A stretch of 63,865 nt of DNA, filler included, from Reclinomonas americana ATCC 50394 (GCA_048213135.1; 14 parts of 14 records of this genome joined end to end with filler, not necessarily neighbours in it); one strand, 5' to 3'; counted from the first letter of the whole stretch, positions 1,483-58,725 are shown. Notes: generated by a model from the letters alone, not told the origin. Numbers and translations: made by a program.

Positions 1483-3309
1483 ATGAGCGGCGAGGGCGAA
1501 GACGACGAGTTTGGTGGCAGTGGCAGTGGCATTCATGTGCCTCCTCCTCCTCCTCCCCCGCCACCACCACCACCACCACCCATGGCACTCTCCTCTGCAC
1601 AACCAGTGATTGTGCCTCTGCCCGAAGGCCGACGCCAGAAGAACACCAAGATGAACCGACCTCCACCGCGCCCGTTTGACATGAGCAAGTGCGTCCACTC
1701 TCACACTCACACACACACTCACACACTCTCTCACACATGTGCATGCACAGACATCCATTGCGTCGCATTGCACTGCGCATTGCATATGTCGGATGGAGCT
1801 ATGCAGGTCTGGCTCTGCAAGAGTCGGCCACTGACACTGTGGAGGTGAGAGCGAGAGAGTGTGTGCTTCCTCTGTGCACACAGGCACTCACATTTTATGT
1901 GGAAAAAAGGCGCGTTTGTTTGACGCCTTGCAGCGCACGTGCCTCATTTCGGACCCAGAAACGTGTCGGTACTCTCGCTGTGGACGCACTGATCGGGGAG
2001 TGAGTGCGCTGGAGCAGGTGGTGGCACTGTATGTGCGCTGCAAGGATACAACGGGAATGGGCGTGTTGCCGGCGGGCACGATTGTAAAGTCGGAGGAGAT
2101 GACGGTGGACTACATGGAGGAGATCACGGCGAGTCTCGGCCCGCCTCCTGCTGTCTCCAATGGTGCTCGGCGAGCGATGGATGGCCTTGTTTCCATTCTC
2201 TGCTTGCTCATGGTATGCTGGGGTGTGTGCAGAGATGGACTATGCGGGCATGCTGAACGGGGCGCTGCCGCTCGACATTCGCTGCACCGGGTGGGCTCCG
2301 GCGCCCCACAAGTTTGACGCGCGTTTCTCGGCCGAGCAGCGCACCTATCGCTACTACTTTTTGCATGGAGGCATGGACGTGGAGGTGAGCTGAAGATCTG
2401 ACTCTGCGTGTGGCGTAGTCGCTGACCATCGTTTCTCTGCTGCAGGCCATGCACCGTGCGGCGCAGTCGTGGGTGGGCGAGCATGATTTCCGCAACTTTT
2501 GCCGCATGGATGCGAGTGCCGTGACCAACTTTCGACGACGCATCTACAGCGTGACTGTGCGACAGTGTGGGCCCGTGGAGCACTTTGGGGCGGCCTCGAG
2601 TCCGTTCACACCGTACGAGTTGGAAGTGGTTGGCTCGGCGTTCCTGTGGCACCAGATTCGCAACATGGTGTCGGTGCTGTTTATGGTGGGCCGAGGCGAC
2701 GAGCAGGAGGATGTTGCGTAAAATGCACAACACCGAGGGTTATCCACTCACCCACTCACTCACTCACCACGGCGCGCAGATCATTGCTCAACTCTTGTCG
2801 CCCGAGCACTTCCCACTCAAACCCACGTACCCCATCGCGCCACCCGAGCCACTCGTGCTCTACAACACCACCTTCAAAATCCCACTGGAGTGGCGCGAAG
2901 CCTCAACGCCACGCGCCCTCCAGTGCATCCTCGATCAGTTTCGAGAGCACATGGCCAAGTCGGCCACCCTCTTTGGCATGATGGCCGGCATTAGCGGTTT
3001 CGCCGACTTTGCCCACCAACAACACCGACCAGCGCGGATCAACGGCAAGCGCAATACTCGTTCGCACGTGCCGCTTGTCGATCGCTCCATGGAGTGTTAC
3101 GTGCAGTGCGCGCACCTACCTATCGAGAAGTTGCCTTTGGCTCATTTGTCGTGCTTGCAGGTTCTTACGAGCACCGACTGGAGACGGTCAAACGACGACG
3201 ACTAGACAAGGGCAAGCCTCTGCCCACGGCTGTGGCGGCTGCAATTGCCGCTCGCGATGAGGAGGCAGCGAGTGGAGGAGAAGAGGAATACGACGAGGGC
3301 GACGAATGA
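1483..3309 (+). CDS. PUS3: tRNA pseudouridine(38/39) synthase, TruA family; 7 exons
   Basis: Spliced motifs RRIALRIAYVGWSYAG, YSRCGRTDRGVSA (catalytic Asp), FDARFS..RTYRY, GEHDFRNFCRMD, GSAFLWHQIR. GT-AG introns start at 1689, 1845, 2163, 2385, 2713 and 3096. Confidence 0.95.
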
Positions 3310-3396
3310 ACAAAAACGGAGAGAAACTGACTAAAGTCGAACGTCGACATTGACGTCATTGCTTGTGTGTTTGTGTGTGAGAGGGAGAGGGAGAGA

Positions 3397-3797
3397 ATGA
3401 CAGAGTACAAGGGAAGTGGAGGCGAGGGCAATCGTGCGGCTGCACTGCTGCGCAAGAGAGAGGAGGAGCGACGTGACTTTGAGCGGCGCATCAAGCTGCT
3501 GGAAGACGAGTCCACCAAGAGTGGGCTCATTGCGTTCACAGGGTTGCGTCTCTCTCTATCTCATACGCACACACAGGTAGAGATAAGAGAAGAGAGGAGA
3601 GGAGGAGAGAGATGTGTGTGCATTGTGCATTGCGAATCATGATTGATCAGAGTCAAGTTGGACTTGCTCTTTCTCGTTCTCTCTCACACTCTCTGTTTGC
3701 TGTCTTGTGTTTGTTCTGTCTGCCTTTGCCTCCCTGTCTCTCTTTCTCGTTCTCGTTCTTTCTATGTTGTTACTCCTTGCCACTATCTCTCTCTCTC

Positions 3798-3872
<75 letters not shown>

Positions 3873-5607
3873 CTCGCTCTCTCTGCCTCTGCCACTCTCT
3901 CCCTCCTGCTTTCTGTCTCCATGCCCCCTCATCCCTTTCCCCATCTTCCTTCCTCGCCCCTCCCATTCTTCCCTCCCCCTCTTTGCTTATTATTCGATGC
4001 AGCGTGCCGGAGACCATGGAGGACCACTTGAAACGCGAGGCCATTGGTCTGCAAACCAAGGAGGAGTACGCGCAGAAGCGAGAGGCGTATCTGCGAGCGG
4101 AGGAGGAGCGGCGGCAGAGGGAAGAGGACTTGTTGCGTACAACACACACCCTCACCCTCTCTCTCTCCACACAAATCACGCTGGCAACATGAGGAAAAAC
4201 ATTGAGTTGGGAGCTGAATGAGGTCGCCCGGTCTCGTGATGCGAACTTTTACGGGCGAGCACCACTTGTGGGTGCGGTGTGAAGTGTGGGGAATCGCTGT
4301 GCAGGTGACTGGGGGAGAGACGGAGGCTGGGAGGAGTGTGCTTTGTGCGCGCGCTTGCTCGTTGCTGCCGCGCGCTCACTCCCTTTCTCACTCTTCTCCA
4401 TCACCTTGCGCGCATTCTCCCCACTTCGCATCCCTCGATGCTGACTTAAAGGCGAAACTGAAGGCAGCACAGATAGACACACACCCCCCATGCACAAAAT
4501 CGTGTTGCACTGCTTGCGATGCGGCACCCTGTCTCACTTTTGTGTGCGTGTGCAGGGCGGCGTTGCGGCGAGAAGGGAAGCGAATGGAGAAGAAGCAGGA
4601 CAGGTCACGGTTGTCGTTTGCGGATTTTGAGGATGAAGAGGAGCTTGGTGAGAGGGTCGAGGTGGACGAGGATGGTATGTCTTCCTTTTGTTGTTGTTGT
4701 CTTTTCAATCATCGCGGCGTGTGTTGAGTTGTTTTCTATTCTTGCGTGAACAGAGATGCCACTGAAGAAGCGCAAGGTTGTGAAGAACCCCGACGTGGAC
4801 ACCTCGTTCCTGCCGGATCGCGATCGCGAGCGCCAGGTGCGCGAGGAGCGACTGAGATTGCAGGAGGAGTGGATGCGACAGCAGGAGGCCATGAAAGGTG
4901 TGTGAGGGTGCAACTTGCCGCCCACAAAGCAGGCATGCGTGACTCACATGCATGTCTGTGTGCGACAGAGGAACCGCTCGAGGTCACGTACAGTTACTGG
5001 GATGGTACAGGTCACCGAAGGACGGCCAAGGTGTGTGGAATGGGCGAGCATGCGTACCTACGGGCGGCGATGTGACGCGTGTATGTGTGGCGCAGGTCAA
5101 GAAGGGTTTCACGATTCGACAGCTGCTGTGCGAGGTGCAGAAGGAGTTCAAGGAGTTGCAGCGTGTGTCAGTCGACAGTCTCATGTTTATCAAGGAGGAT
5201 ATCATCATTCCCCATGTTGCGTGCGTGGGCCGCTGCCTCTCCCCCCTTTGCTGCGTCTGTGGTTGCTTACTCGTCCTTGCAGCAATTCACATTCCACCAC
5301 CTCATTGTCAACAAGGCACGTGGCAAGTCAGGTCCGCTGTTCCACTTTGATGTCCACGAAGACGTGCGCATGCTGGCCGACGCACGCAAGGAGAAGGACG
5401 AGGTACGCATCTCTTGGCATTGCGCTGCAATACAGCAGGCGTGCATCCTCACCTCCTCCCGTACAGTCACATCCGGCCAAGGTCGTCGATCGTCGCTGGT
5501 ACGAGCGCAATAAGCACGTGTTCCCGGCCTCGCGGTGGGAGATCTACGATCCGGAGAAGGAATTCGAGAAGTACACCATTCATGGTGGCGAAGTGCAGGG
5601 GCAATGA
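3397..5607 (+). CDS. XAP5: XAP5 / FAM50 family nuclear protein; 8 exons
   Basis: [74 protein letters not shown]. Confidence 0.96.
3787..3883. repeat. (CT)n microsatellite in XAP5 intron 1
   Basis: Direct reading. Similar CT/GA/CA tracts occur in many introns and at most contig ends. Confidence 0.95.
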
Positions 5608-5684: not shown

Positions 5685-7473
5685 ATGGCCTCTGCCGCCG
5701 ACAAGCACCCATGCCGCTGGGGCATTGTCTCCACTGCCCGCATCTCCACACGAGTTCCGCCCTCTTCTGTCTCTCTCTCTCTCACCATCACACACACGAT
5801 CACACACAACAACAAATGTGCATGCATGCAGATCTGCGGAGCAATGGTCGACGCACACAACGCACGCCCAGAAGCCGTGGCCAGTCGCTCCCTGGAACGC
5901 GCCACCGAGTGGGCAGCACAGCACTGCGACACCATGCGTGCTCTTCCGACCTACTCCGAGGTTCTTGTCGCTGAAAGGCTATCTCCCCCCACGTTTGTCT
6001 CCTTCTCACTCACCACTGCGCAGCTGGTCCGCGACCCCGATATCGATGCCGTGTATGTGCCACTGCCTTGCGCCCTGCATCGCGATGTGGTGGTGGAGGC
6101 GGCGGAGCACGGCAAGCATGTGCTCATGGAGAAGCCGGCGGCGACCTCAGTCGAGGATCTGCGTGCCATGATCGATGCCTGTCGTCGTGCCGGTGTCAAC
6201 CTCATGGATGGAGTCAACTTTATGCATCATCCGCGCCTCAAGGTGCTGCAGGAGGTGTTGCACGACCGGGAATTGTTTCGTTGCGTTTCTCGTGTTGTTT
6301 TTCCCTCCATTGCATGCGTTGACGTCCATGTGTGCAGCCGATGGAGTGCACTACATGCAGGTTGCGTTCTCGTTTCCGACCGAGGACGACTGGCGCGCTG
6401 GCAACATTCGCACCAATATCGACCTGGAGCCACTGGGCGCTGTCGGCGATCTCGGCTGGTACACTGTGCGCATCATGTGAGTAGTGCCTGCTGCACAGCA
6501 TCCGTTGCGCATGCCGCGTCTCACTGTGCATGTAGTCTGGTGGCCTTTGATTGGGAGTTGCCGGTGCGTGTGCAGGCGCACACGTTGCAGTCGCAGAATG
6601 GAGTGCCGACGGCCATGAGTTGCGTCGCCACCAACGAGTACTTGGAGTTGTCGCTGACTGGGAGGACTGCACAGCGGCGACTCTGTTCTTCACCAACAAC
6701 CGGCATGCCACATTCGACGTGTCGTTCTTCTCGAATCGACTGGAGAGCGTGCGCATCTGGTCGCGCGAGTGTACCGTGTCGATGAACGACTTTGTGGCAC
6801 CACGCGAAGTGGTTTGTGCGAATCGTCTTGTGGTCTCGATGGACTCCTGCTCATTGCTCTCTCCTCGACAGCCAAACATCGAGGACACGTTCAGCGATTC
6901 AGAGACCGACCGCGTGCTGTATCACAAGGCACCGGGAGCTCCGTTGCGTTGCAGTCGTCGGCCCATGTTCCATCACGCTGTCATTGCCCACTCACTCCCC
7001 CTCAGTGACACTGCCAAGCACGGTTGCCGGTTCGATGTGTTCACCGGGCGCGCCAATGCTGCCGTGCGCAAGACCACACATGTGGTGGTCGGCGCTGCTC
7101 CGCACGTTGTGTTGTTGCTCTTGCAGTCGTCGCTTCATATTGCTCTTGTGTTTCTCACGCGGTGACTGCAGACCGTGTCGATGATTGAGCGGTTCAGCCA
7201 GAGTGTACTCGACAGCAAGGTACGACTCACAGATCAACACTTCTCTTGTAGATCGCTCACGCTTATGTTCTCTTTCTGTCCCCCTCGTCACACAGGTGGA
7301 ACCCGAGTTCGTGGGTGCGTCACCCCACTCTCCCTTTCTCTCTCTCATCATCTCCACTCACTCGGAACACCGCTGCAGAGTGGATGCTCAAGACGCAGAT
7401 GGTGGTGGACGCCTGCATGAAGTCTGCAGTGGACGACGGTGTCATGACTGCCGTGGGAGCCTACGAAGTCTAA
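5685..7473 (+). CDS. Gfo/Idh/MocA family NAD(P)-dependent oxidoreductase; 11 exons
   Basis: RWGIVSTARI, AVASRSLERA, DPDIDAVYVPLP, GKHVLMEKP, LMDGVNFMHHPR, LEPLGAVGDLGWY. Ten GT-AG introns restore one frame ending in TAA at 7471. Confidence 0.92.
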
Positions 7474-7489: not shown

Positions 7490-10161
7490 TCAGCGAAACA
7501 TAAACGTGTTCTTGTTGGTGCCCTTGAGAATGTGCTTGGCACTCTCCGTGCCGACCACCCTCTCCACGACCATGGCATCGAAGCGCGTAAAGAGCGCAGG
7601 ACAGACATCGACGCGACCCTCGTCCACCATGTTGATCACCTCCGAGTAGAAATGCGGGTGCTCCGGCAGCGAGTAGAACACCACCCGCTTGGCGCCGCGC
7701 AGTCGGTACCTAACAACGACATCAATCAGCACACAACCACGGGCCCCGAGCATCGCGCTCCACTCACCGCTTGAAGAAGAGGAAGCGTTCCGAGATCAGC
7801 ATCACTTTCTTCTCGCCGTGGAAAAACGCGCCGCGCTCCACCGACAGCTCCGGACCCGTCGAGTACTCGGAGCACACGGCCAGCGGGACGTTGTGCTGCT
7901 GGAGAAAGTTGCGCACACGCACGAAATCGAAATACGACGCCACAAAGATCAGCGTCTGCTGCTCTCCCAGCTTCGGATAGATGCGTTGCTCAAAGTACGT
8001 GAAGCGCGCATCGTCGGCCGTGGCCACAGAGTCGGCGACAATACGGTGGAAGACCATGCGCACGGGCACGGCGACCCGTGGCAACACACCCGGATACGTC
8101 TGTCGCACAATCACCGGCCCGAACTGCGACTGTGCATGCTTCCGGAACAGGGCCGACACGTCAGGCGACGAATAACGCGACAGGAGCGTGATGGAACGGA
8201 AGCGCTCCGACACCTCGTCCACAAAGTACGGTCGCAGGCGTGAAATGTCGGCGTGATGCAGCTTCGTCGGCACGCGATTCAGAGCCGCAAACGTGGCAGC
8301 CACGTGCGCCCAGTTCTGCATCAGCATCACATCGAGCTGATCGGCCACCACCAGGTCGACAGACGACAAAAAGTCCATTTCTCGCTCGCCCTCGCTGCCC
8401 AACAATAAGAAACGGCGCATAAGCGACAACACCACAGGATACCACGGAAGCACGCACGCACCCTTCCTCGCCGACCACCAGACGCAAGCCGAGGGGAGAC
8501 GCCACCAGAATGTCGGAGGTGTAGAAATCGGAAAACAGTTTGACGCGCTTGCCCGACACCGAGAGTCCCACGCGGAAGCAATCGTCAATGTTCTCGCGGA
8601 AGGTGTGCCGATAGTCCACTGGGCGCAACTGCAACTTCTCGTCGGCCTCGGGCGGCGACGAGAACTCGTCGTCGAACCGATCCTGGTTGATGACGATTCC
8701 TGTGCCGTCGCTGTGCGCAACAGCATGAGACAAAGGCGTGCCCTCGACTACTTCACCTCTCCCACGCACGCGTACCTCGTCACCGCACGAATGATCTCAT
8801 TGACAACATCCCTCGCCGTATTCTTCAGCGGCAGCAGGATGAGCACCTTGGCTCGCGTGTATCCCTGATCGTGGAACTCGGAACGCGGTTGCTGCGACGA
8901 TGAGGCAGAGGACTCAGCCGGCGACCGGTGTTTCCGTTGCTTCTCCTGTTGCTTCTTCCTGGCACGAGCAGCATGTCGCTGAATGGCCGACGATCCGTTG
9001 ATCTTGTCCTCCTCCTCCTTCTCATCTTTCTGTTCTTCGCGCACCACCGCGTTGTGCTTGCCGACCTGGTCGTTGACCCGCATCACATGGTGCAGACCGT
9101 AGAGAGCGTAGAGTGCACGACGGCGACGCTCGTCCTCCACATTGACCACCGACTCGGTGCCATTCAGTGGCGTCACGTACAACAGATCGCGTCGCGAGGC
9201 GATAATGGCCACAAAGGCGGCCTCGGCTGGCGACAGACGCACAGGCTCGCCCAGCTCCTCGCACCGTCGTGTCCAGTAGTCGGCCAAACGCTTCCGCATG
9301 ATGCGACTCACATCGTCACAAACCGTGGGCGTGTGTGTCGCCTCCGAGCGCCACGCCGCCACCGAGTCGCCGAGCGAAGAGTACGGATGCGCCAGCTTGG
9401 ACGAGATGGCCTGCATCTCCGTGTGCGGTGGCAGTGGAGCCTTTAGCCGCGCCAGATCCTGCACTCCGTCGAAGCAGTCAGCACCTGCACGCGCACACAC
9501 ACACACACACACACGCGACCACACTCACCGTCTCCTCCGTGTACGAGGAAACCGCTTGCCACCACTCCTCGTCCAGCCGCACACCATCATCGACCGCCAC
9601 ATGCCCTGCATCCTCGTCCTCCTCCTCTTCTTCCTCCTCTGCATCCTCGCCCAGCTCCAGTCCACTCTCCATCTCTCCATCCGCCACGGTTGGTCTCTTC
9701 ACACTCAAGTCCTCATCGTCATCGTCGTCGTCATCGTCATCGTCGTCACCGTCCATCGCCTCATCGCCGTCCTCTCCCTCTGTCCTGCCCGCCGCGGCAG
9801 ACTCCAATCGTCGGCTGCCTCGCAGCAGCGACAGGAACGCCACGTAGTTGGCATCCGCTTGTCCCTCGACATCATCATCATCATCGTCATCGTCATCGTC
9901 GACCACTTCGTCCTTTTTGTTGACTGCTGCAGCACCTCGTTTTCTGTGGAACGACTTGCGCTCCTCATCTGTGGACTCTGTTGTTTTCAGTGAGGGCTTG
10001 TGAGTGGATGATGTGAATGTGCACATGGCCAAAAGAGCGACGCAACTCGCGCGGAACTTGCCGCCGGTGTTTCTTCTCGCCGGCTTCCCCTCCGCCCCCG
10101 ACTTGTGTCGCTTGAAGGGCACCTTGCCGCTGGCACTCTTGCCACTTCTCTCACGCTTCAT
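7490..10161 (-). CDS. UTP25: U3 snoRNA-associated protein 25 (DIEXF/Def)
   Basis: Acidic N-terminus, DQGYTRAKVLILLP, NIDDCFRVG, LFSDFYTSDILVASPLGLR, MQNWAHV, SYFDFVRVRN, SERFLFFKR, VVFYSLPEHPHFYSE. Confidence 0.95.
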
Positions 10162-10239: not shown

Positions 10240-12437
10240 ATGTCTCTCTCCATGGTGAACCGCAACTCTGAGGTTGCCCGCAAGCTGCAGGTAGGCAAAC
10301 AACGACGCACGACATGCGCGCGTGTGTGTGTTGTGCGCGCGCGCGCTCAAACATGCTCACCCACTCTCTCTCTCTCTCACACACACAGGCCCTCATGATC
10401 AACATTGGCGCGGCTGGCGGTCTGCAGAACCTGCTCAAGTCCAACCTCGGACCCAAGGGCACTCTGAAGATGTTGCGTGCCACACAAACACACAAAACAA
10501 ACAAACATGAAAGACAGCAGCAGTTGTCTCTGTGCGCGCGCTCCTGCTCTCTCTCTGTGCCATCGCGCACACTCACGCGCACTCTCTCCACAACACAGGC
10601 TGGTCTCTGGCGCCGGTGACATCAAGCTCACCAAGGACGGCGCTGTGTTGCTGCACGAGATGGTATGCGCGTGTGTGCGCGTGTGTGTGTTGTCGATGTC
10701 GCAAATGCTCACCCTCTTCTCTTCTCTCTTAGCAAATCCAACACCCCACCGCCAACATGATTGCGCGCACTGCCACTGCGCAGGACGACATCACGGGCGA
10801 TGGCACGACATCGTGTGTGCTGTTGGTGGGCGAGTTGCTGCGTCAGGCCGAGCGGTACTTGGCCGAGGGCGTGCACCCGCGTGTGCTGTCCGAGGGCTTT
10901 GAGCAGTCGCGTCTCATTCTGCTCGAGTACCTGGAGCAGCTGAAGCAGGAGCGCGACATTAGCGACCGTGAGCTGCTGCGCGCCGTGTGCAGGACATCGG
11001 TCGGCACCAAGGTCGTGCCAAAGCTCGCCGATCAGTTGGCCGACATTTGCACCGACGCTGTGCTGTGCATCCGACGACCGGGCGAGGAGCTCGACCTGTT
11101 CATGGTGGAGATCATGCACATGCAGCACAAGGTGGGGTGGGATACAGCAGGGACGGGATGGAGGACTCTGAGTGTGAGCTGAATATTGATGATGTGTGCA
11201 TGCAGATGGACCAAGACTCGCGCCTCGTGTCGGGTCTGGTGCTGGATCACGGCTCGCGACACCCCGACATGCCGCGCGACCTGCGTAACTGCTACATTCT
11301 CACCTGCAACGTGAACCTGGAGTACGAGAAGAGCGAAGTGAATGCCGAGTTCAAGTGGCGATCGGCGGCCGAGCGTGAGCGCCTGGTGGAGGCCGAGCGC
11401 AAGTTTGTCGACGACAAGGTCCGCAAGATCATCGATCTCAAGCGCCAGGTGCGGAACTTTCCCCCCTTCCCCCCTCCAATTCAAGTGTGCTCGTGACTGA
11501 CTTTATTCCATGTAAAAGGTGTGCGACGGCACCGACAAGACTTTTGTGGTGATCAACCAAAAGGGCATCGACCCGATGTCTCTCGACATGTTCGCCAAGG
11601 AGGGCATTTTGGGACTGCGCCGTGCCAAGCGCCGCAACATGGAGCGCCTGGTGCTGGCGTGCGGTGGTGTGGCCGTCGATTCGGTCAACGAGCTGACGGT
11701 GGCCGATCTCGGCTACGCCGGTCACGTGTACGAGCAGACTCTCGGCGAGGAGAAGTACACGTTTGTGGAGGAGGTGTCGAACCCGCTCTCGTGCACCATT
11801 CTCATCAAGGGTGCGTGGGAGTTGCATCACCTGCCTGTTGTGTATCTGTGCCAATGATTGTGTTTGTAGGCTCGAACAAGCACTCGATTGAGCAGATCAA
11901 GGACGCCGTGCGCGATGGTCTGCGTGCCGTGAAGAACGTGCTGGAGTGCGGCGCGGTGCTGCCCGGTGCTGGCGCGACTGAGATGGCATGTGCGCTGCAC
12001 TTGCGTGAGCGCGCCAAGGACGTCAGCGGCAAGTCCAAGCTCGGTCTGCGAGCATTCGCCGACGCGCTGCTGGTCATTCCCAAGACGCTGGCGGCGAACT
12101 CGGGCTACGACCCGCAGGAGACGTTGATCAAGCTCGAGGACGAGTTCCACGCTGGCACTCAGGTGGGCATCGATGTGTACACGGGAGAGCCAGTGGAGCC
12201 GTACTCGGCCGGCATCATCGACAACTTCATGGTCAAGAAGCGTGAGTAATATGAGGACGAAAGTGGCAATCGATCCTGCACGCGAAAAGTTGCTCATTTT
12301 GGTTGGTGTGCGCCTGTGCAGACTGTATCAGCAGCTCGTCCATGATTGCGACCCAATTACTGCTGGTCGACGAGATCCTGAAGGCCGGCCGCGTCCGCGG
12401 TGGCGCACCCGGTGGCCCCGGTGCCGGTGACGAGTAA
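10240..12437 (+). CDS. CCT6: T-complex protein 1 subunit zeta (CCT6)
   Basis: [95 protein letters not shown]. Confidence 0.98.
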
Positions 12438-12841: not shown

Positions 12842-12941
12842 NNNNNNNNNNNNNNNNNNNNNNNNNNNNNNNNNNNNNNNNNNNNTTAATTAATTAANNN
12901 NNNNNNNNNNNNNNNNNNNNNNNNNNNNNNNNNNNNNNNNN
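12842..12941. other. Artificial assembly linker (N44-TTAATTAATTAA-N44); 13 copies in the window
   Basis: Identical 100-nt spacers with stops in all six frames, also starting at 24827, 27123, 28414, 30094, 32183, 36272, 44172, 54277, 56266, 58626, 61063 and 62335. Confidence 0.99.
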
Positions 12942-16292: not shown

Positions 16293-17619
16293 ATGTGGTG
16301 GAACAGTGGGGTGGATCTGCAGCCGCTCGTCGCGGCGTTTGTGTGGGATGCCGTGTTCACGTGTCTCACGTTTGTGGGATCGGTGGTGGTGCGTCGTTGT
16401 CAGCTGCAGGAGAGTGCACGCAAGAAAACATACTCACGCACTTACGCGCACAGATGGACAACTCGTCGGTGTATGGTCAGGCCCCCTGTGCATTCGTCTT
16501 TTTCCTCACTGCTCGTCTCTCACTCGTGCACACTCGACAATGCACGCAGATCCGTACTGGAGGTGAGTGCATTCATTGTCATGCATTCAGAGATGTGATT
16601 TCCTCATGCATGCAACAGTGCCGCACCGCCACTGATTGTCGTGTACTGGCTGTGGAGTGCGGGCGGTGGTCTCAGTGCACTCACCGAGCGCTCCATACTC
16701 ATGACTGTGCTCATCTGGGTGTGGGGACTGCGCCTGACTGCCAACTTTCTCGTCCGCGATGATGGTGGCGGTGGCCTCGGTCGCGGCCGCGAGCTGGAAG
16801 ATTGGCGGTGCGTGTGTATGTGTGTGTCGTCGTCATTGCTACCTTGCCTACTGTGCTCATGCACCGCGGAACCGACAGCTACAAGGAGCTCCGAGTGCAG
16901 CACGGACGCTTGTACTGGCCGGTCTCGTTTCTCGGCATTGTTGCGTTTTGTGCAGGCTGCCCTGCGCTGGCGGCGACCACCTCTGACCCCCGTCGCGCTG
17001 TGTGAGTGCAGCACTTTTTCCCGACAGTCCTCGTGTTCCTCGGCATGATTCCCGTGTTCTTTGCCACTCGCTCGGACACTCCCCTGAATGGCGTCGATGC
17101 GCTGGTGAGTGAGAGTGAATTGATGCGTCGTCGACTCGACTCGTGCTGCTCACCCACTCGTGCGTGCGTGCAGGCCCTGGTGGTGACTGCGATTGGTATT
17201 GCCTTTGAGGCTGGGGGTAAGTGCATTGGCTGGCCGACTCAGTCGGTCTGGCTCGCTCACCATGCGTCCTTCATGGCACAGGCGACTGGCAGCTGGCTCG
17301 CTTCCGTCACACGCGACGTACGCGTCACGAGGTGCTGCAGAGCGGCCTCTTTGCCTTGACCCGTCACCCGAACTACTTTGGGGAGGTGACATTGTGGTGG
17401 GGTCTGTGGCTCTTTGCTGTGGCCTCGTGCCCGCTGGCGACGGTGGCGTGGCCGAGCGTGGCTGGCGCGTTGGCCATCACCTGCCTGTTTGTCTTTATCT
17501 CCGTGCCGTGGCTTGATCAGCGCATGGCCGAGCGCAAGGGTGCTGCATTCGTGGAGTACGCGCGACGCACCCCGGCACTGTTCCCGTGGTTTCCACAAGC
17601 AGCCGTCAAGTCGGCCTGA
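16293..17619 (+). CDS. DUF1295 / steroid 5-alpha-reductase-like membrane protein
   Basis: DNSSVYDPYWS, WGLRLTANF, EDWRY, SFLGIHFFPT, GDWQLARF, GLFALTRHPNYFGE, EYARRTPALFP. Confidence 0.92.
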
Positions 17620-20700: not shown

Positions 20701-22929
20701 GGTGCGACAGGCGACCAGACCTCAGGTTCGGGAACGGTGGTTCTCATCGAGTCCATGCGAGGGATGGTGGCGGCAGATGTGGGCGTTAACTGCGGGGGAT
20801 TAGGAGAGCCAAGACATGAGGAGAGATGGGAAGAGAAGGAAAAAGAAGAAATAGGAAGAGAAGAGAGATGAGGAGAAGAAGAGAGAAGAGAAGAGAATAA
20901 TAGGAGAGCAAAAAAGGAAAATGGAGGAAACGACGAGTGAGTAGATCACATACCCTCTTCTCCGCAGCCTCCTCCTCGGGTGAGAGCATGAAATGACTGG
21001 CGACGGGTGATTGCCGTGGCTGTGTGTGCACGGTGAGCGAACTTAGAGAGAGAAAAGGGAGAATCTCAATCGCGGTGCGTACCAATGGTGATCCCACGCT
21101 GCGATTCGCTGGCGACGGCGCGTCGTCAGTGAGCATTACGAATGACGATGATGCCGATGAGCCAGCAGTGGCAGCGAGTGGCGGTGGTGGTGCTGGTCTC
21201 CGTCCAGGCTGCAAATGTGCACATGTGAGGGAGAGGGAAAAATAGAGGATACACTCCAAGTGTGCACGACGCACCGCGTGAACGACGTGCTGCGCGAGTG
21301 GATGTGTCTGCGGGAGCGAGGGACAATGTCAGCGCGAGTGGAAGCAGGGCGGTGCAAGAGCGACGCAACATCCGACGGCGACTGAGCACCAGAAGCCTCT
21401 CGGGACTCGGCTTTCTCGCGTGCAACCGCCCACCGTTGACGGGTGCGTGGTGGTGGCGAACGCGACAGCGAGACAGAGGAGCGAGGAGTTGAATTTGTCG
21501 TATCCTGCTCGTGACACACACACACATTCACGCAAATGTGAGAGTGGACTTCAACGTAGAACGTGAGCGTGGCCACACACACCGTTGTTCCGCCGTTGCG
21601 CTGGGGAGACTCGCTTCGGGAGGCAGTTTCACGCTTCTCGACCTCCTCTTTCACCTGCTGCCAGCGACTGCGCAAGCGAAGCGACCGCGACATGCGCTGC
21701 AGGGACGAGCGGAAAGCCACCCACAGTTCGCGCATTTCTAATCTCTGTGCATGATGGAAACGCGCGTGTCAGTGCGCGTGACGATGATGCATGCATGCAG
21801 CAGCGGCTCTTGCTCGGTACCTCCTCCGGCACCCGGGTATCACGCGCATTGCGCGGATTCTCCAGTGCGCGGCGACTCTTGACGGAGAAAAAGTCGTATC
21901 TCCGCTCGAGCAGCGTGCACAGATCGTCAAAGACGGGCTCGCCGAGAACGTCTTGCACGCGAATAACAAACTGGTTGACCATTTCGGCCTGCAGGGGTGC
22001 GGTGAGAAGAAAGGAGAGAGATGAATAATCACAACAAAGAACGCGTGCGCGCGCAACATTGACGGGCGACACTTGCTGCAGGGAGCGTGGACATGGACCT
22101 ATTACATGCATGCGGGGTCCCACCTGCATCCACCACAGTGAGGAAACGACAGCAGGCAGTGCAACAAAGCACAACGTGTGGACACACCTCCACCATCTGC
22201 CGCAAGCGACCCGTGGCCGACGATCTCAAATCGAGACGTGTAGCAATGGCATAAACTACCACAAAGTGACCGGAGACGCCATTGCGTCCGCGGTCGTCGT
22301 ACTCCACGCCCTCGAACTCACACAGGTCGATGCGATCGCGGGGAACATAGAGCGTGTACTTGGAGAAGCTGTGCATGTGGCGCGTGTCACACACAAACTG
22401 CCATCACAGCGACGAAATATACAGAAATAGGGGAAAAATGCGAACACGAACACGCCGGCAACGAGGCAATCGAGGACACGAGAAACGATCAAACAAACAA
22501 AACGCACACACACGACAGCACAGCAAGTAATGGCGTGGCGCGAGTGAACAATTGAATGAACAAATGAATGAATGAATGCATGTAAACTGCACAGGTGTGC
22601 GACTCGCCCTCTCTCTCTCTCTCCCTCATACAAGCGGGGAAGAAACGCAACATATCGCGCGGCACAAAGTGCAAGCCGTCATCGCTCAGAATGATGTTGC
22701 CCTCCTCGTACTTTTCAGGTGTGGCGGCATACGAACCCGCGCGAGTTCCACTGTGTGCGAGAGTGTGTGAGAGAGGAGGAGAAGGGAAGAAGACAGAGCG
22801 CGCGCGCAAAGGCGTGTTTGCGTGTGTTTGTGTGTGACAACGCAACACAAGAGTGACGCGGTAAGCACCGGGCAGCTCCAGAGGGCGCGTGGAGAGTAAT
22901 GACGACGACGAGGATGCGGAGGAGGCCAT
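17701..22929 (-). CDS. Large multi-exon unknown protein (globular N-terminal region, long Ser/Pro-rich region, short coiled coil); could be two genes
   Basis: Chain of exons bounded by GT-AG introns from MASSASSSS (22929) to TGA (17701). No family recognised, and not every junction was verified. Confidence 0.6.
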
Positions 22930-41189: not shown

Positions 41190-41304
41190 TTCTGTTGTGG
41201 TTGGTGTCGATGCGTGGTGGGAATGGTGGAGGAAGTGGAGTGAGAGAGGGCGGTGTGCAGGCGGGAAGTGGAGTGCCTCTGAGTTGCGCGCACAGAGAGA
41301 GAGA

Positions 41305-41341
<37 letters not shown>

Positions 41342-48100: not shown

Positions 48101-51100
48101 TCCTTTTCCTCGCCATTGTTCCCGTATTCTTCTGCCTTCCTCGCCCTTCCTCTGTTTAACACTTTTCCGCTCTTCCCTTCCTTCTTTATGCCTCTTTCTC
48201 TCTTCCCCCTCCTTCTCTCCATCTCCCTCTCCTTCTTCTTCCTCTCTTCATTCACCATCTTCCCCTTGCCCTTCTCGTCCTTCCTAGTCCTTCTGCTCTT
48301 CATCCACTTTCTAGAGATCTCCTTTTCTGCCTCTCTCATCTTCCCCCTCTCCCTCTCCTTCGCCTTCGTCTCTTCATCCTCCTCTCTCCCACTCTCTTCT
48401 CCCTTCCCCTTCCCCTCCCTCTCCCTCTCCATCTCCTCCCTCTTCCCTCTCTCCTCCCCCTTTCCCTCCTTCCTCCCTCCCCTTCTCCCTATCCCTTGTC
48501 CTCCCTCTTCCCTTCTCCTTACTTCACCTTTCGGGGGGCGTTCTCGTTCCCATCTCGTGCACTCCGAGGGCAAACTGCCGCTCCCTACCCGCCGATCGCA
48601 TCTGCTGCAGCATGCCCATCTCCTGTTCAATGTCGTACATCTGCAGATGGCTGGAAGGTGAGCAGCAAGGAAAACTCTCGCAACACTGGTTGCCGCCAGA
48701 CAAACCGGTGATGTGGGTCGCGAGTTGTTCGGCACCGCCTCCTCAAAGTTGGGGAAGAGGCCACCGCGAATCGTCCTCTCTCGCACGGCACGACCGCGCG
48801 ATCTGTTGAAGCCGTACGATTGCACCAGTTGCTGCACCTCCGTGCTCGCCACCACACCCGTGCTGCAGATGTAACCAGTTTCAACAATACTGGCACCTAT
48901 TTCTTACACAGCAATATAAGATAACGCAACGCTGCCATGACCATCTCCCAGTGTCGCTCACGATCGCGGCGAAGGTCGTCGCGCTTCTTGGCCCACACTT
49001 GCATGTGCCGGGAGCGGCGATCCTCCATCGACTTGAGTTGTCGTTCGAGGCGCGCCGAGCGGTACGGCCCCTGCGGCAGCGCACGGATGCTGGCCCGGAT
49101 GCGCGCCTCCTGCTGGCGCGCCAACTCAATCTTGCCTGCATTGATGGGGAGATGAGACGCCACACAACCATGAAGAACTGTGGTGATGGTGGGGAGACGA
49201 AACGCTGCAGCGCCTCCAGCTCCAATCGCTCCGCCTCAATCGCGGCATGCAGTGCCACCTGCTCCAAGCGCAACCGCTCGTCCTCCTCCAGCAACGACTG
49301 CACCACCTTGGCATCGATGGCTGGATCAGGCGCCGTGGCGGGCTCTGGTGGCGGCATCGGCACCGGTTTCTGCTTGGCGTCCGCCTTCTCCATCGATTCA
49401 ATCACGCGCTCCGAGATGCTGACCGCCAGCTGCTCCAGCATTCTGCGCGCCACGTCATCACGTTACTTTCCTTCTCAAGGCAACAGGAAGTGAAGACCAC
49501 CCAACAACTCACTTGCCCTGCGACAGGAGCGCGACTGCTGCCGACTCGGACACGGCATTGATCTCCGCCTCCAACGCGGCGACATCCATGTAATCAGCGG
49601 CCGCAGAGTCGCCGACAAACCCGCCGTCACCGGTATCGTCCCCATCCTCCTCGTCGTCATCGTCTTCGTCGTCATCATCATCATCGTCCTCACCCGCTGG
49701 CCCATCGTAGCGACGCATGACCGACGGCGCCATGGCGCGACCCGAGGTCTGCGCACTCGATCCCGGAGTCTTGCGCCGCCGTGCGCTGGAGGGCTTGGTC
49801 TTGCGGCGGTTCTTGCGCGTAACAGCCTTGGTGCCAGTACGACTTGCGCCCGCCGAGCCACGGCCACTATTAGCACTGCCGACGCGAGAGCCTGGCTCCT
49901 CGTCACCCGAATCGTCCAAGTCGGCGTCGCCCTCGTCGTTGGCCGCCGCTGCCGCGCGCACCACCACCGCCTTGGCCTTGTTCAGCGCACGGCTCGTGCG
50001 GCGTGCCAGCGACATTACCTCCTTGGTCACGTCTTCGCCGGCGGTGATTCGCTTGAGGAGGGTTTGCATCTGTGTTGCGAGGCGCCGGTGAGCGAGGGAG
50101 AGAGAATAAGAGAAGAGAAGAGACCTGCAAAATTACCGTGGTGGCGTCCACGACCGACAGGTTGACCTTGGCCTTGCCGAGACCGTGCTCCAGCACGCGA
50201 GCCACGTTGATCATCTTCAGGACCATGGAGTTGATGGACTTGCGTTCTTGCTGCAGCACCCTGGTTTTTGCAAACCAAGACGAGATCAGTCGCCAGAAGG
50301 AGGAGAAGGAGGAGGAGGAGAAGGAGGAGGAGGAGAAGGAGAAGAGGTGAAACAAGAACTCGACGAGGAAGAAGGAAGGAAACAAGAGGAAGACCAAAGA
50401 AGGCGAGGACTTAAGCTGAAAGGCTCAAGGAGGAGAATAAATGCGGGAGGAGGAAGCAAGATGGGGGAAGAACAAGGAGAAGGAGAAGAAGAAACGGAGC
50501 TCAAGGAGGACGACAAGAACAACAACAACAACAACAACAAAAACCAACAACAACAACAGTAGCAGCAGCAGCAAGAAGAAGAAGATTGTCGGGAACAAGA
50601 AGCCCTTCTCCTTCACGCACATGATCTCATGATCCAGTGTCTCCTGTTGAAGATGCAGCTCGACAATCTCTCTCTTAAAGGCCTCCACATTGGCCTCACG
50701 CTCCAGCTCGCGCGTGCGCTGCTCCTCCCTCTCCGCCTGCATGCCAAGTCAGTACCGTAGACAAACACAGTTTCCGCCGTTTCTCCACACACACGCAACT
50801 TCACGATGTGCCGTCTCGGCGTCTGCCTCGCTGGCACGCCGCAAGCCCGCATTCTCCAACTGGCGCTTCAGCTCAGTGATGAGGTGCTCCTTTTCGATCA
50901 TCGCGTCTTGCATGGCCGACACCTCGGTGCGTGCCACTTGCAGTTGCGACTCAGTGGCCGCCTTTTCCGACTCCAGTCGCAGCTTGTCTTCTTCCAGCTT
51001 GCCGGTGTCACCACGCAGTTGCTCCACCATGGCGCTCTGCGAGGCAAGTTGTTTTGAGGACCGAGAGAGGAGACGGCGGGGAGTGAGAGGGTGAACGCAA

Positions 51101-53936
51101 CTGCTGCACGCAAAGCATTCTCACGCTCCGGCTGCTCGGCGGCCTGCTTGAGTTGCCATTGCAGGCTTTCGATTTCAGCACGCTGTGCAGACACATGTTC
51201 AGCACACCATACGTGTGAAAAGCAAGACCGTGGACACGCACCGCTTCCGACAACTCGGTCTCCTTGATTGACATGGCCTGCTCGTGCTCCTGCTTGGCCG
51301 CATCACGCTCGCCAATCACAGTCGTGATGTGCGCCTTTAGATCGCGCAGCTGTTGGTTCTGGTCGGCCAGCTTGGCGCCATTGGCTCGTGCCGTGGCCGC
51401 CACGGCGTGTTCCGCCTCGAGTTCCACTGTGTTTCACACAGATGAGCGTGAAACCCCAGAACAAGTGCGGAGGTTCGCTCGCACCTTTCAAGTGCGCAAT
51501 CTCGTCCTTGAACTTGCGCTTCTTGACCTTGTGCTTCTCCAGCTTCTTGCGCGCAGCCTCCACCTCGGTTCGCAGCGGTCGAGTGATACGGTCGACACCT
51601 TCGGCTGCGCTCGAGAAATGAATGAGTGGACGAGGTGGGGGAAGAGGAAGAACACACACCGCTCACCAATGGCTTTCTCCTGGTTGGCCGTCATATCCTC
51701 CAGCTTGAAGACCAATGAGCCTGCCAGAAAGCACAAGAGGTAAGTCTCCGTACTGCACACATTCTTCCCCCTTTCCGGCCGCAACGTTCTCGCTCCTCGG
51801 CCGACTTGAGAGCTCGCTCCAAGATGGCGATCTGCTCCTTCTGCCGTGCACAGTCCAGACGCATCTGCTCGTGCATGCTCTCCACCGCAAACATGCGCGT
51901 CTGATACTGCATGTTCTCCTTTTCAAGCACGCTCATCAGCCGCTCCTTGCGATCCATCTCCACTCGCAATGACTCCAGCGCACTCAGAATCTGACGGCGG
52001 CGAATGAGCAACAGAGAGCACTCCTCCCCCCTCCCTCCACCCAACAAACCTCCTCTGTCTCGCGTGCAGCATGCAGCAGTTCCTCTTCGAGCGACTCCAC
52101 CGCGAGGTTCAACTCAATAATGCGATGCGCACTCTCCTTTTCCTGCTCCAGCAGTGCACGATTAAACTCCTCCTGCTCCGCCAGCGCCTCGTGCACGCTT
52201 CCGCCCTGTGTAGCCTGCCGATCCATGCGCTGCTCCATCTCATTCAGCGGCTGCACAAACTCGTCGGTGGACTCGTCCGACGAGCCCTGCCAGTCCACAA
52301 GAATGCCGTCCTCCAAACGATACGGCGCTGCCGAAAGGGAACACCCATGTCAGCTCACGGTCGGCCTCCTTGACACAAAAGGCGCACTCACCATCTTGGC
52401 TCGAGGGCATGGAGCGCATGAGCTCGGCCAGAATCTCTGCGCGCTCCTCCAGACGCTTCTGCAACGCGACGCGATCCAGCACCTGCTCCTCCTCCTCCTC
52501 CTTGGCGTCGGCCTGCTTCTCCAGCATTTGCAGAAAGGCCTTGCCGGTGCGAGTGGTAGAAGACTGGCTGTCGCTAGCCTGCGCCGCCGCCTGCTTCTCG
52601 TCACCACCACCAGCCTCGGCGTTCTTGGCGTTCTTCTCGAAACGCCCGATCGTGCGCTGCAGCATCTTGAACAGGCGTGCAATGTCGTGCCTGCGCATTT
52701 GTGCCGTGGTCAACCGGCGGGTGGCGATGCGCGCCGTCTGCACTCGCAGCGTGGTGAGGAGATTGCAAAGGAAAGGGGCGAGGGAGGAGAAGAAGAAGAG
52801 GCGACGCACAAACTCATCATCGTCCTCCTCGTCACTCGAATCGTCGTCCTGGAAATCGTACATGCCCAGCTCGCCTTCCGGCTGCGATCAGAGAGAGTGG
52901 GGTGAGGAAGCGAGTGATCCTCGACGGGCGCAAGGCCACGCACCAGGTTGCCAAAGAGTGCCTGCGTGAACAGCGGTCCGGCTCCGCGTGTGCCCGACTG
53001 ACGCGATCGTGCGCGCTTGATGAGACTCCCCACCCGGGCACGCAAACGCGGGCCACCTTCAAACACCTCAGTTCCTCGCCGACCACGAGCAGCGGCCAGC
53101 GATTCAGAGGAGAACACCGAGCCGGAGCGAAACTGCGCAAACGAGTCGCCAAACACTTTCGAGCCTGCACGTCCGCTGTCGCCGACAATGCTCGAGCGGC
53201 GGCCGGCGTTCTCGGCCGCCCGCACCGCCGCACTGAGCATATCCACCGCTCGGTACCCGGAGCCCGCTGCGTCGCTGCTGGCATCGGTGAACGTGCTGCC
53301 TCGCCTCGCCGCATCAAACGTGGAGCCTCTTCTGACAGCGTCAAACGTGCTTCCTCTTCTCACAGCGTCAAACGTGGAGCCCCTCCGTGCCGCGTCGAAC
53401 GTGGAGCCTCTCCTTGCCGCATCAAACGTGCTGCCTCTCCTCGCCGCATCAAACACACTGCCCTTGCGTGCACCATGATCGCCAAACGTGCTGCCTCGCC
53501 TAGCCGCCCGCTCAGCATGCGCAAACACACTGCCCTTCCTCGCCGGCTCCTTGCCACGCGCTCCACCACCAGCCACCGTGCTCCCGCGTCGCGCAGCCGC
53601 CTCTGTGACCGCCGCCCTCGCCTCATTGCCGCCACTGAGCGGTCGAGCAGCAGCCGCAGCAGCTGGAGCATCGGCAAATCGCACACTGCCATCGCCTCCA
53701 CTCGGCGGCCTGCCCTTGCCATCCTCAAACCGCACACTTGAATCCTTGCGCTTACCCGCCTTGGACGACGACACAAGCACCTCTGCGCGCGGCACATCAT
53801 CCTCTTCCTCTTCCTCCTCGTCGTCATCTTCACTGAATTCGCTCGCCGAGGCTTTCGGCGAGCGTGCAACCGACGATGGCGGTGTGCGCGGACGGCGAAT
53901 GTGTTCCGCCACGGGAAGATCGTCGTCGTCGCTCAT
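45102..53936 (-). CDS. Very large multi-exon coiled-coil protein with N-terminal RRGS repeats; function unknown
   Basis: Exons run from MSDDDDLPVAE through E/K/Q/R-rich heptad segments (about 48900-52800) to ...SRFPQL-TAA. Most junctions were checked for frame. Confidence 0.7.
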
Positions 53937-56489: not shown

Positions 56490-56542
<53 letters not shown>

Positions 56543-56872
56543 ATTTCTCCTCTTTCTCTTCCTCAATGCCTGCATGTTCACAGAGGCCCTCCGCCTGTCG
56601 GACTCATCAGACGACGAGGAGGAGACTGCAAACGCACCCGCGGCCAACTCAACCGGCGGCGATGGAGGCGAAGTCGCCCCTGCCGCCTCGTCCTCCACCG
56701 CCGCCGCCGCCGCTGCTGCAGCAGCAGCACAACGCTCGCATCGCAGCAGCGGGCTGTACTACGCCGATCCCGACGCGCACGCCCCGTCGCACACGCGGAC
56801 GCGGTCGCCACGCTTCCCCGCCAGCCGATCGCCAACTCATTCCTCGGGAGATGAGGAGTCTGTATCGCAGCA

Positions 56873-56913
<41 letters not shown>

Positions 56914-58340
56914 GCCGCGGGTTGACAACGCACGACTTGTACAATGATGAATCGCATTTCATTTCACGCGCGCGACGAACCATGGGCGAGCGCACGTTCC
57001 ATCAACTCATGCGCACTCGTGCCGGCGGCGACTCGACGCGCTCCTACCAGCTGGCTGTGGAGTGGTTCCGTCGGCGAGAGGAGACTCGTGAGCAGCGTCT
57101 CTATGTGCACGAGAGGTCGGCCGCCGACAAGCGCATCGTTGCGTGCACGGCAGAGAGGGTGTGGGGTGGAGAACGTGTTGCTGATCAAAATGTTGTGCAG
57201 TTTGAGGAACTGGATGCGCGCGAGGAGCTCCGACTGCAGCGACAGCGATGGATGCAGCTCCGCACGCAAGTGTATGAGGCACATGCGCCAGAGTTGCGTC
57301 ACGATTTCTGTACGAAGAGTCGAGTGTTTTTTGTTCTCACCAAGTCTGTGTCAGAGCCGAGCCCTTCCGCCGCAACCAATTCCGAGTGGTGCGCCTCGGC
57401 AGCAACGGATCGTTGGAAATGCAGCGAGCGACACAGCCGTACACTGACATTTTCTCGCCTCAACGGAAGCCGCGGGTGAGTGACTCTGTTTAGTGTTTCA
57501 TTCACTCTCTTTCTTGCTGTCTCATCCCCCTCATGTTTCATACTCTTTCTTTTCCTTCCTTCTGTTCCTCCCCCTGCTTCTCTCCCCTGTTGCTTCCTCC
57601 CGTTCTTTCCCCCTGTTTCTTTCCGCTTGTCCGTTCCTTCTGTTCCTTCATTCACCTCCTTCCTCCCCACCTGCCCCCTGTGCCTTCTCCCCTTTTCCCC
57701 CTTCCCATCTTCATTTCATTCTCCGTATTTACTCCCTCCCCCTCTCTCGTTTCCCTTCTCTCGTATCCTTCCCCTGTTCCTTCCCCTTGTGCCCCTCCCC
57801 CTATCTTCTTTCCTTTCCCTTCCCCATTTCCCTTCCCCTCACGCCTTCCCCCTCCCGCAGTCCCCTCCCTACCCCGCCTCCAAATCCTGGAAGCCACTGA
57901 CTGGCGAAGCCGGCAGCGCCCTGGAGCGCCTCCTCAGCTGCCGCAACGCTCGCATCGCCGTCAGCCACATGCGCCAAGTATTTGAGCGGTCGCTCCACTC
58001 AGTGGAATATCAGTACCAGCCGCCGGAGCAGTTCACACCCAACACGCTCTACTACATTGTGCTGTGCCCGCCCGAGGCAACCAGCGCCGCTGCCGGCTCC
58101 GGAGGCAGCGGCAGCAGCTCGTTGTCGCCGCCCAACTCGTCGGATCTGGCGAGCTCGTATTTCGCGCCGCGTGGATCCAGTGGTGCGTGGCATCTCTCAC
58201 TTTTTTGTGCATGCCTTGCGACGCGCTCATTTGTATTTGGTGGTGGTGGTGCAGCGGCATTCACAGACGCCGTGCGTCTGAAGGATCAGGGATTCGTCGG
58301 CTTTGCGAGACACGGACTGGGCCAGGAGCTCTTCTCGGCT
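55609..58340 (+). CDS. Internal exons of an unknown protein with poly-Ala and poly-Gln tracts; spans a gap, both ends missing
   Basis: Exon 55609-55763 ends in phase 1 and joins the acceptor at 56583 in frame. Further exons lie at 57201, 57861 and about 58255. A (CAG)n tract is at about 56868-56911. Confidence 0.65.
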
Positions 58341-58725
58341 GTTGCGTCACGTTTATTTGTTTGCTTACTCTGCCTTCCCCCTTGGTTTTCCCCCATCGTT
58401 CTCTCACCTTCGTCTTTCCCCCTGCTCTTGCTGTTGCTATATTCCCCCTTCCGTCTTCCCCCTTCCGTCTTAGCCCTTCTCCTTCCCCTTCTCCTTCCCC
58501 TTCGCTCCCCCTTCGTTTCCCCCTTCGCTCCCCCTTCGTTTCCCCTTCGTTTCCCCTCGTCTCCTGCTGTTTCCTCCCTCCCCCTTCCGTCTTCCCCCCT
58601 TCCCTCTTCCCCCCTTCCCCCTTCCNNNNNNNNNNNNNNNNNNNNNNNNNNNNNNNNNNNNNNNNNNNNTTAATTAATTAANNNNNNNNNNNNNNNNNNN
58701 NNNNNNNNNNNNNNNNNNNNNNNNN

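Follow-up and report, generated by a model that had tools for sequence, protein, structure and literature searches.

What reads a 5' splice site that begins GTTGCGT, and do introns really begin that way? Both questions are raised by a stretch of 63,865 bases of eukaryotic nuclear DNA from Reclinomonas americana ATCC 50394 (hereafter the window: the whole stretch at its full length, with positions counted from its first base). Its G+C content is 57%, 13 linkers (44 N + TTAATTAATTAA + 44 N) connect the 14 contigs that compose it, and it is densely packed with genes, with short introns throughout. An earlier note on this DNA had proposed that, beside ordinary 5' splice sites (donors), GTTGCGT serves as a second major donor class, routinely recognized by the U1 small nuclear RNA (snRNA) one base out of register. 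The two questions can be answered with different degrees of assurance. Judged by the proteins that their removal restores, GTTGCGT-type sequences are shown to be true 5' ends of short GT-AG spliceosomal introns, and to make up a second, abundant class of them. That the class is displaced in register, and that its reader is a U1 adapted in this lineage, a second U1 or a protein-assisted one, is a proposal drawn from sequence, in which we place about even confidence.

A second, abundant class of donors

Introns were assembled with a dynamic-programming gene finder whose sole donor rule was GT, and in a later pass with a donor model trained on the finder's own output. (A technical caution: the GT-only finder merged genes and placed several junctions wrongly, as became evident on aligning PheRS alpha; the self-trained finder mis-set the donor at 25504 and extended UTP25 through the antisense of CCT. 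Corrections were made by hand where homologues permitted.) The resulting curated set holds 93 introns, 32 of them checked by homology or by continuity of a protein profile, and 61 taken from the self-trained finder; all 93 run from GT to AG. In what follows, +1 is the first intron base, -1 is the last exon base, and a slash marks the cut.

The 25 exact GTTGCGT sites that the earlier note listed are all present where it placed them, on the strands that it gave, and 24 of them follow, as it claimed, an exon ending in a base other than G (T13, C6, A5, G1). With four unlisted copies (6361, which is exonic; 57293, a possible donor; 30998 and 46990) the heptamer occurs 29 times on the two strands, against 10.34 ± 3.43 in dinucleotide-preserving shuffles, none of 100 of which reaches 29. 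(Ranking heptamers against a third-order Markov expectation added nothing, microsatellites dominating the list.) The GT-only finder placed 12 of its 90 predicted donors at GTTGCGT, as compared with 29 GTTGCGT among 7670 GT sites window-wide.

How many of the listed sites are donors? Protein colinearity or Pfam continuity fixes eight of the 25: 2713, 5216, 6280, 6619, 10472, 25709, 25879 and 26443. Nine more (6943, 10046, 16940, 19068, 44018, 48930, 50799, 51101 and 57138) are supported by gene models, that is, by an open frame, an acceptor and a suitable length, the acceptor of 44018 being doubtful. The last eight (3543, 4132, 15841 and 58341; 21369, 22651, 22846 and 35101) were not adopted by the gene models, and the in-frame joins that are possible at them score low. 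The assignment of 3543 and 4132 to PUS3 has to be given up: that gene ends at 3309.

The listed variants divide similarly: 3096 (GTTACGT), 5754 (GTTCCGC) and 7106 (GTTGTGT) are supported by homology, 51785 and 49203 by gene models, and 26991 and 36593 weakly. A further one, 48684 (minus strand, GTTGCGA, 44-nt intron), competes with 48705 (GTTTGTC, 65-nt intron), with which it has acceptor and frame in common; these in-frame candidate donors, 21 bases apart, possibly form a tandem pair. Missing from the earlier list were other donors with T at +3, namely 5961 (GTTCTTG) and 25504 (GTTCGTG), both homology-supported, as well as 6812 (GTTTGTG) and 22057 (GTTGCGC), which come from models. The range of +3T donors is accordingly wider than had been claimed, and takes in some that keep +5G together with -1G.

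Eight exact sites and three variants thus give eleven class junctions fixed by homology, in five unrelated genes, at which removal of the intron restores a conserved protein; nine of the eleven introns are not a multiple of three in length. One could still maintain that the sites are not donors and that the gene models are wrong, and could point to the eight of 25 listed sites that lack verification. At the eleven junctions, however, the conserved protein is restored residue for residue, and the objection is almost certainly mistaken. GTTGCGT is, as the earlier note held, a real and major donor class beside the ordinary donors of the type G/GTGCGT and G/GTGAGT.

As to abundance, +3 is G in 14, T in 13 and A in 5 of the 32 checked introns, and GTTGCGT opens 8 of the 32, a share that is overstated, to the detriment of our case, because the checked genes were partly picked for holding listed sites. 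In the entire curated set +3 is T in 32 of 93, and GTTGCGT opens 17 of 93. The true share of GTTGCGT should lie nearer 13-20% of introns, or roughly one in five.

Register and reader

For analysis, a donor was assigned to the class if it had T at +3 and G at +6 but some other base at +5 (n = 23); 61 ordinary donors served for comparison. The core of the class is tight, with G at +4 in 20 of the 23, C at +5 in 22 and T at +7 in 20. Ordinary donors are looser (of 61: +3G, 46; +4 A22, C19, T13; +5G, 49; +6T, 35), and the GC that the class has in 19 of 23 cases is found in 15 of 61 of them (p = 2e-6). The exon side separates the two even more sharply: G stands at -1 in none of the 23 class donors (T9, C8, A6) as against 44 of 61 ordinary ones (Fisher 3.5e-10), so that the anticorrelation with -1G that had been claimed is borne out. 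It holds in the homology-checked subset (0 of 11 vs 16 of 19; 6.7e-6) and also when only perfect ordinary hexamers are taken for comparison (-1G in 16 of 22; p = 1e-7). The +3T donors that keep +5G (GTTCGTG, GTTTGT three times, GTTTGCC) have -1G in five cases out of five, of which only 25504 is homology-checked, the finder having a mild preference for -1G. In normal numbering, then, +5G and -1G, which make the strongest contacts of all, are both missing from the class, and each reappears one base 3'. The conserved GCGT core is separated from the cut by one base more than usual, with C at +5, G at +6, and an exon that does not end in G.

Is a special register called for at all? It may be that the requirement for a purine at +3 is merely relaxed in this genome, and that GTTGCGT has become frequent through composition or mutation. 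Donors of the expected kind, with +5G or with no G, do exist (25504 and 5961, supported by homology; 6812, 48705 and 52049, from models), and Entamoeba is an example of a lineage whose norm is +3U (10.1101/2022.06.08.495308; here and below, statements from cited papers refer to the parts of them available to us). Plain relaxation would not, however, make the class so much tighter than ordinary donors in its GC core, nor remove -1G and +5G together, a combination nearly absent from ordinary sites, nor generate 29 copies of GTTGCGT where 10.3 are expected. We regard it as decidedly improbable.

Alternatively, the introns might have been born from a repeated mobile element (an introner) ending in GTTGCGT, as one heptamer common to many short introns of similar length (median 68 nt) might suggest. 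Their interiors are unrelated, however, the mean longest common substring being 5.9 for the class and 6.1 for ordinary introns, with no introner-type similarity beyond the splice signals; in length and acceptor they are like ordinary introns (median 68 vs 67 nt; acceptors with C at -3, 22 of 23 vs 53 of 61); and one of them occupies a place that it has in common with introns of distant eukaryotes. That intron, 25709, lies between the second and third bases of a serine codon, right before G-A/E-W. A metagenome scan with the PheRS exon, used for intron position only, gave 21 loci (best identity 67%, none closer than Seculamonas). At four of these, on contigs of distant eukaryotes (L013:7365, L014:2787, L015:2082 and L016:8342), the matching exon starts AG/T GGT (L014-L016) or AG/G GGT (L013), in the same place and phase as at 25709, as judged from the acceptor side only. 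This sharing argues that the intron is old and that its donor was changed in place. An introner origin is very improbable; the class would instead have arisen at old intron positions.

Pairing with U1 was evaluated with ViennaRNA, as nearest-neighbour energies of naked RNA, against the canonical U1 5' end AUACUUACCUG (as printed in PMC4856993). The class consensus, gau/GUUGCGUGC, comes to -0.6 kcal/mol at its best, and to +1.6 when the shifted register is forced upon it; ordinary consensus sites range from -8.9 to -13.3. The mean over the class, -0.91, is poorer than the -2.83 of 310 unused exonic GT sites in four validated genes (area under the curve, AUC, 0.21), while ordinary donors average -6.64 and are well separated from the same 310 decoys (AUC 0.88).

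Can ordinary U1 (5' end ACUUACCUG) nevertheless suffice, pairing one base out of register, perhaps with the usual support of U1C and LUC7? The displaced Gs and the absent -1G match that register, and registers of this kind exist: in human cells shifted, bulged and asymmetric-loop pairings have been proven (Tan et al. 2016, PMC4856993; PMC9311317), the shifted register having been described at human GUUAAGU by Roca and Krainer in 2009 (as cited in PMC4856993 and PMC9311317). Yet all the validated noncanonical human registers together account for 1.5% of donors, as against 13-25% for one motif here. Poor pairing in the canonical register is what the class displays; clearly better pairing of canonical U1 in the shifted one is not, and the class ranks below exonic decoys. 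GUUGAGU and GUUAAGU would pair better with canonical U1 than the class consensus does (-3.8 and -3.7 kcal/mol, respectively), yet A, which canonical U1 would prefer at +5, occurs there in 0 of 23 class donors, although the matching slot of ordinary donors has it in 22 of 61. An A at -1 would lengthen the shifted helix, yet it is not enriched (6 of 23). Because of the poor energies, the lack of A at +5, and a class -1 position unlike the ordinary -2 position (see below), a shift of ordinary U1 is insufficient for the consensus and, as a complete explanation, unlikely. Of the shifted U1 recognition that the earlier note proposed, the register pattern survives; ordinary U1 as a sufficient reader is not supported. 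What is left is the other suggestion of that note, an adapted or second U1 or U6, or altered proteins.

A different way of accommodating the additional U, whether counted as +3 or as +2, would be to bulge it, at the U1 stage and then at the U6 stage. The partners of G+1 and U+2 would remain normal, and the loss of -1G would have a separate cause. Such a +2/+3 bulge is a validated human register, with 68 predicted sites (PMC4856993). It would account for both snRNAs, since U6 also must reach one base further, to G+6 and U+7, and slippage, by inserting one U, offers a simple route to it from a GUGCGU donor at a place long occupied by an intron. But a bulged site that retains its normal exon contact would gain from -1G, whose additional G:C pair lowers the energy from -0.6 to -4.5 kcal/mol; -1G should then be found as it is in ordinary donors, in 44 of 61, and it is found in 0 of 23. 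On that account the one-base displacement of both key Gs speaks for a displaced register in preference to a bulged +3U, as had been proposed. The bulge forced on canonical U1 comes to +2.4 kcal/mol, and this explanation is quite unlikely.

What, then, might read a displaced donor? Reading would be shifted by one base, the intron's +1G filling the slot of the exonic -1G and +6G filling that of +5G, while the cut would still be set by GU. If the ordinary U1 5' end is insufficient alone, an adapted U1 or a second U1 variant may be at work, and some options can be offered: 1) an adapted 5' end, on the pattern of the ACGUAC of Mastigamoeba, might have G facing the C of GCGU; 2) a second U1 variant, with A opposite +2U, might pair along the whole of the GUUGCGU heptamer; 3) as a fallback, U1C and LUC7 might provide help on the protein side. 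Calculated energies make the trade-off plain. With the U1 variant AUACGUACCUG the class mean falls to -4.79 (AUC 0.61), and ordinary donors stand at -7.57 (AUC 0.79); with AUACGUAACUG the class reaches -8.6 (AUC 0.96), and the ordinary AUC is 0.60. U1 ends with A at position 8 give AUCs of 0.94-0.96 for the class and of 0.60-0.65 for ordinary donors; the Mastigamoeba-like ACGUAC aids both moderately; and among 64 variants none is good for both classes, the best joint AUC being 0.78.

A more specific version of this proposal, which we hold only tentatively, has two parallel donor codes operating within the major spliceosome: canonical U1 would read G/GURNGU and a variant U1, with A opposite +2U and G opposite +5C, would read GUUGCGU, with U6/Prp8 independently fixing the cut. 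Avoidance of -1G would then ensure that no site is contested by both readers. No snRNA gene, whether of U1, U6 or any other kind, was found within the window at gathering score, nor when the limit was relaxed to an E of 1, which yielded only sub-threshold miRNA-like matches and one snoRNA-like match.

Several considerations, in addition to the overstated share already mentioned, weigh against a displaced register with its own reader. A pure shift predicts that class -1 should copy ordinary -2, and the two differ: at ordinary -2 the bases are A23, G15, C14 and T9, so that G, at class -1 and ordinary -2 respectively, counts 0 of 23 vs 15 of 61 (p = 0.008), and pyrimidine 17 of 23 vs 23 of 61 (p = 0.004). 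No model here accounts for the avoidance of -1G. T at +3 is also found with +5G (25504, and the GTTTGT of 6812, 48705 and 52049) or with neither G (5961), which points in part to plain tolerance of +3U. The energies, being calculated for RNA free of pseudouridine, U1C and LUC7, are no more than a guide, and the U1 variants compared differ only at positions 5, 6 and 8. The sample is one 64-kb window, with 61 of its 93 introns coming from our own finder, the last pass of which was self-trained. Finally, the identity of the motif's reader is purely a matter of inference.

Introns and genes of the window

Pfam matches, in open frames and exons, identify PUS3, XAP5, a GFO/IDH/MocA oxidoreductase, UTP25, CCT zeta, a DUF1295 protein, PheRS alpha, an ornithine cyclodeaminase-like gene and a steroid-reductase-like gene. 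The top named match of three exons is the jakobid Seculamonas ecuadoriensis (CCT zeta 71%, PheRS alpha 77%, PUS3 58%); none of the window's own proteins is present in the protein collection that was searched. By these matches the DNA is jakobid-like.

The PUS3 model (1483-3309, plus strand) encodes 442 residues that align end to end with homologues and fix two class junctions exactly. Intron 6 (2713..2779, gat/GTTGCGT, 67 nt) leaves no indel relative to six PUS3 homologues (GRGDEQEDII/AQLL), and intron 7 (3096..3160, agt/GTTACGT, 65 nt) leaves VDRSMECSYEHR, colinear with homologues. Further along the same strand, the XAP5 intron (5216..5282, cat/GTTGCGT, 67 nt) lies between matches to positions 22-70 and 72-105 of the Pfam XAP5 profile.

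The oxidoreductase (5685-7473, plus strand; 382 residues) has ten introns, with T at +3 in seven of the ten donors. Intron 1 (5754..5831, cga/GTTCCGC, 78 nt) joins ARISTR/ICGAM at the length of the homologues; intron 2 (5961..6023, gag/GTTCTTG, 63 nt), whose donor has +3T and -1G and no G at +5 or +6, joins TYSE/LVRDPDIDAVY, colinear with seven homologues; and intron 3 (6280..6337, ttc/GTTGCGT, 58 nt) sets conserved blocks in frame, at most one residue off the homologues. Intron 5 (6619..6674, tga/GTTGCGT, 56 nt) does the same for the DWELP and ATLFF..FDVSF blocks. Intron 6 (6812..6871, gtg/GTTTGTG, 60 nt) is uncertain, an in-frame, stop-free model in a variable region. Intron 7 (6943..7005, tcc/GTTGCGT, 63 nt), also in a variable region, must be removed if the frame is to run into the conserved C-terminal exons. 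Intron 8 (7106..7171, cac/GTTGTGT, 66 nt) joins APH/TVSMIERFS, colinear with homologues. This gene also contains an unused exonic copy of the motif (6361..6367, plus strand, cag/GTTGCGT), which encodes the QVAF of a conserved MQVAFSF stretch. It is one of two GTTGCGT copies preceded by G, and its exonic use agrees with the avoidance of -1G (n = 1).

UTP25 (start 10162, minus strand) and CCT zeta (start 10240, plus strand) stand head to head with 77 bases between them, and likely share a bidirectional promoter. UTP25 intron 1 (9978..10046, minus strand, cga/GTTGCGT, 69 nt) is a model in an unconserved N-terminus. CCT zeta (10240..12437, plus strand) has eight exons, whose seven junctions show no indel relative to five homologues; intron 2 (10472..10598, gat/GTTGCGT, 127 nt), colinear with all five, is the class member, and the six others are ordinary (cag/GTAGGC, atg/GTATGC, aag/GTGGGG, cag/GTGCGG, agg/GTGCGT and agc/GTGAGT).

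PheRS alpha (24927..26774, minus strand), which has lost its 3' end to a gap at 24926, has eight introns: three GTTGCGT, one GTTCGTG and four ordinary. Its alignment exposed three wrong model junctions, for which the DNA gave 26219 (aag/GTGTGT), 25317 (cag/GTGCGT) and 25504 (ggg/GTTCGTG). The last of these (25434..25504, 71 nt, ending in TAG), with +3T, +5G and -1G, is the sole join that yields MGFEEMPT as in homologues. The intron at 25634..25709 (gtc/GTTGCGT, 76 nt) gives EMLA-S-GAW as in Seculamonas, relative to whose protein the finder's alternative join adds residues. The junction at 25803..25879 (ggt/GTTGCGT, 77 nt) is free of indels relative to six homologues, and so is that at 26373..26443 (cga/GTTGCGT, 71 nt), in a less conserved region.

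The remaining class introns come from models. They lie in the DUF1295 gene (16940..17011, plus strand, att/GTTGCGT, 72 nt), in a gene of unknown family (19001..19068, minus strand, act/GTTGCGT, 68 nt), where the GT-only finder had already chosen the donor, and in a weak model with a gene score of 24 (21989..22057, minus strand, aat/GTTGCGC, 69 nt). A possible one, in frame, is at 57138..57200 (plus strand, atc/GTTGCGT, 63 nt). Five belong to a coiled-coil gene (48524-53936, minus strand; gene score 603): 48863..48930 (agc/GTTGCGT, 68 nt), 49136..49203 (agc/GTTTCGT, 68 nt), 50737..50799 (gaa/GTTGCGT, 63 nt), 51037..51101 (gca/GTTGCGT, 65 nt) and 51721..51785 (aac/GTTGCGG, 65 nt). The model of this gene has 1468 residues and T at +3 in 8 of its 15 introns, and in its first exon RRGSTFDA is repeated in tandem about seven times; exons 10-11, with their runs of L, F and S, look wrong. 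The protein looks low in complexity and has no Pfam match.

Elsewhere, two long open exons at 27223-30093 (plus strand), scored at 123 and 245 by the gene finder and overlapping frames that are open on either strand, have no Pfam match and belong to a gene cut by three gaps. The 13 joins, of which 12842-12941 is one, are linkers with stops in all frames, and several adjoin CT/GA microsatellites, which implies that the gaps lie in simple repeats and interrupt genes. On both strands of 41297-41479 and 62578-62733 there are sub-threshold matches to plant miRNA precursors (best E 0.0047, far below gathering scores); these are probably long hairpins or inverted repeats and not miRNA genes.

Known systems and the meaning of the class

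U12-type introns, with a donor consensus and an snRNA of their own, exist beside introns of the major type in one genome. The class resembles them in being a second consensus; they differ in their RTATCCTT donor, of which there is none among the curated introns, whose class members have the acceptor, length and branch-like motifs of ordinary introns.

The human shifted-register sites also have +3U after GU, a core one base 3', a weak canonical match and a cut at GU. They are rare, however, pair with normal U1 and have AAGU as their core, whereas here there is a major class with GCGU and very poor predicted pairing. The human +2/+3 bulge sites (Roca et al. 2012, cited in PMC4856993) likewise accommodate an extra U after GU, within the U1 helix, but they gain from -1G, which the class lacks throughout.

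Lineage-wide departures from GURAGU, by +3U or +4C, are known from Entamoeba, where 88-89% of introns have GUUUGU(U) and U1 has AACAAAC, and from Mastigamoeba, with GUGCGC donors and ACGUAC in U1; in each the U1 5' end has changed to match (Roy and Bowser, 10.1101/2022.06.08.495308). Those lineages have a single transformed consensus in normal register; here there are two classes one base apart, in an intron-rich, compact genome. Physarum has modified copies of U1 alongside the standard one (10.1101/2022.06.08.495308), and this mixture, like the human variant U1 snRNAs, indicates that one cell can possess more than one U1 5' end; for neither does the available description establish a variant-specific major donor class, and the variant U1 proposed here is only predicted. 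In animals and plants LUC7 paralogues define one donor class that depends on -1G and another that depends on the intron side (Kenny et al. 2025, PMC11842720). The parallel lies in having two classes per genome and a trade-off between -1G and intron-side matches, but the right-handed LUC7 sites are -1H/+5G in normal register, and the class described here is -1H/+5C with +6G.

Andalucia godoyi is intron-poor, with introns in 107 of 864 genes (PMC7050145), which speaks against it as the source of the window, and the gene sequences in its supplement hold 40 GTTGCGT strings, whose splice status is not annotated. A literature search, with subscription journals outside its scope, found no paper with GTTGCGT or GUUGCGU as a splice signal, and nothing on a jakobid donor consensus. 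In none of the descriptions, as available to us, of the systems compared does a single genome combine two tight donor consensuses that are offset by one base.

There is a practical side to this: in a genome of this kind, gene finders trained on GTRAGT-like donors would mis-model one intron in three; the GT-only and self-trained passes both mis-set junctions here. The larger interest is in the contact between the 5' splice signal and the 5' end of U1, which is among the most conserved RNA-RNA contacts of eukaryotes. If the proposal is right, two tight donor classes, offset by one base and mutually exclusive in their exon contact, would constitute a natural experiment on uncoupling the cut from U1 pairing, and would also test whether one cell can maintain two U1 specificities.

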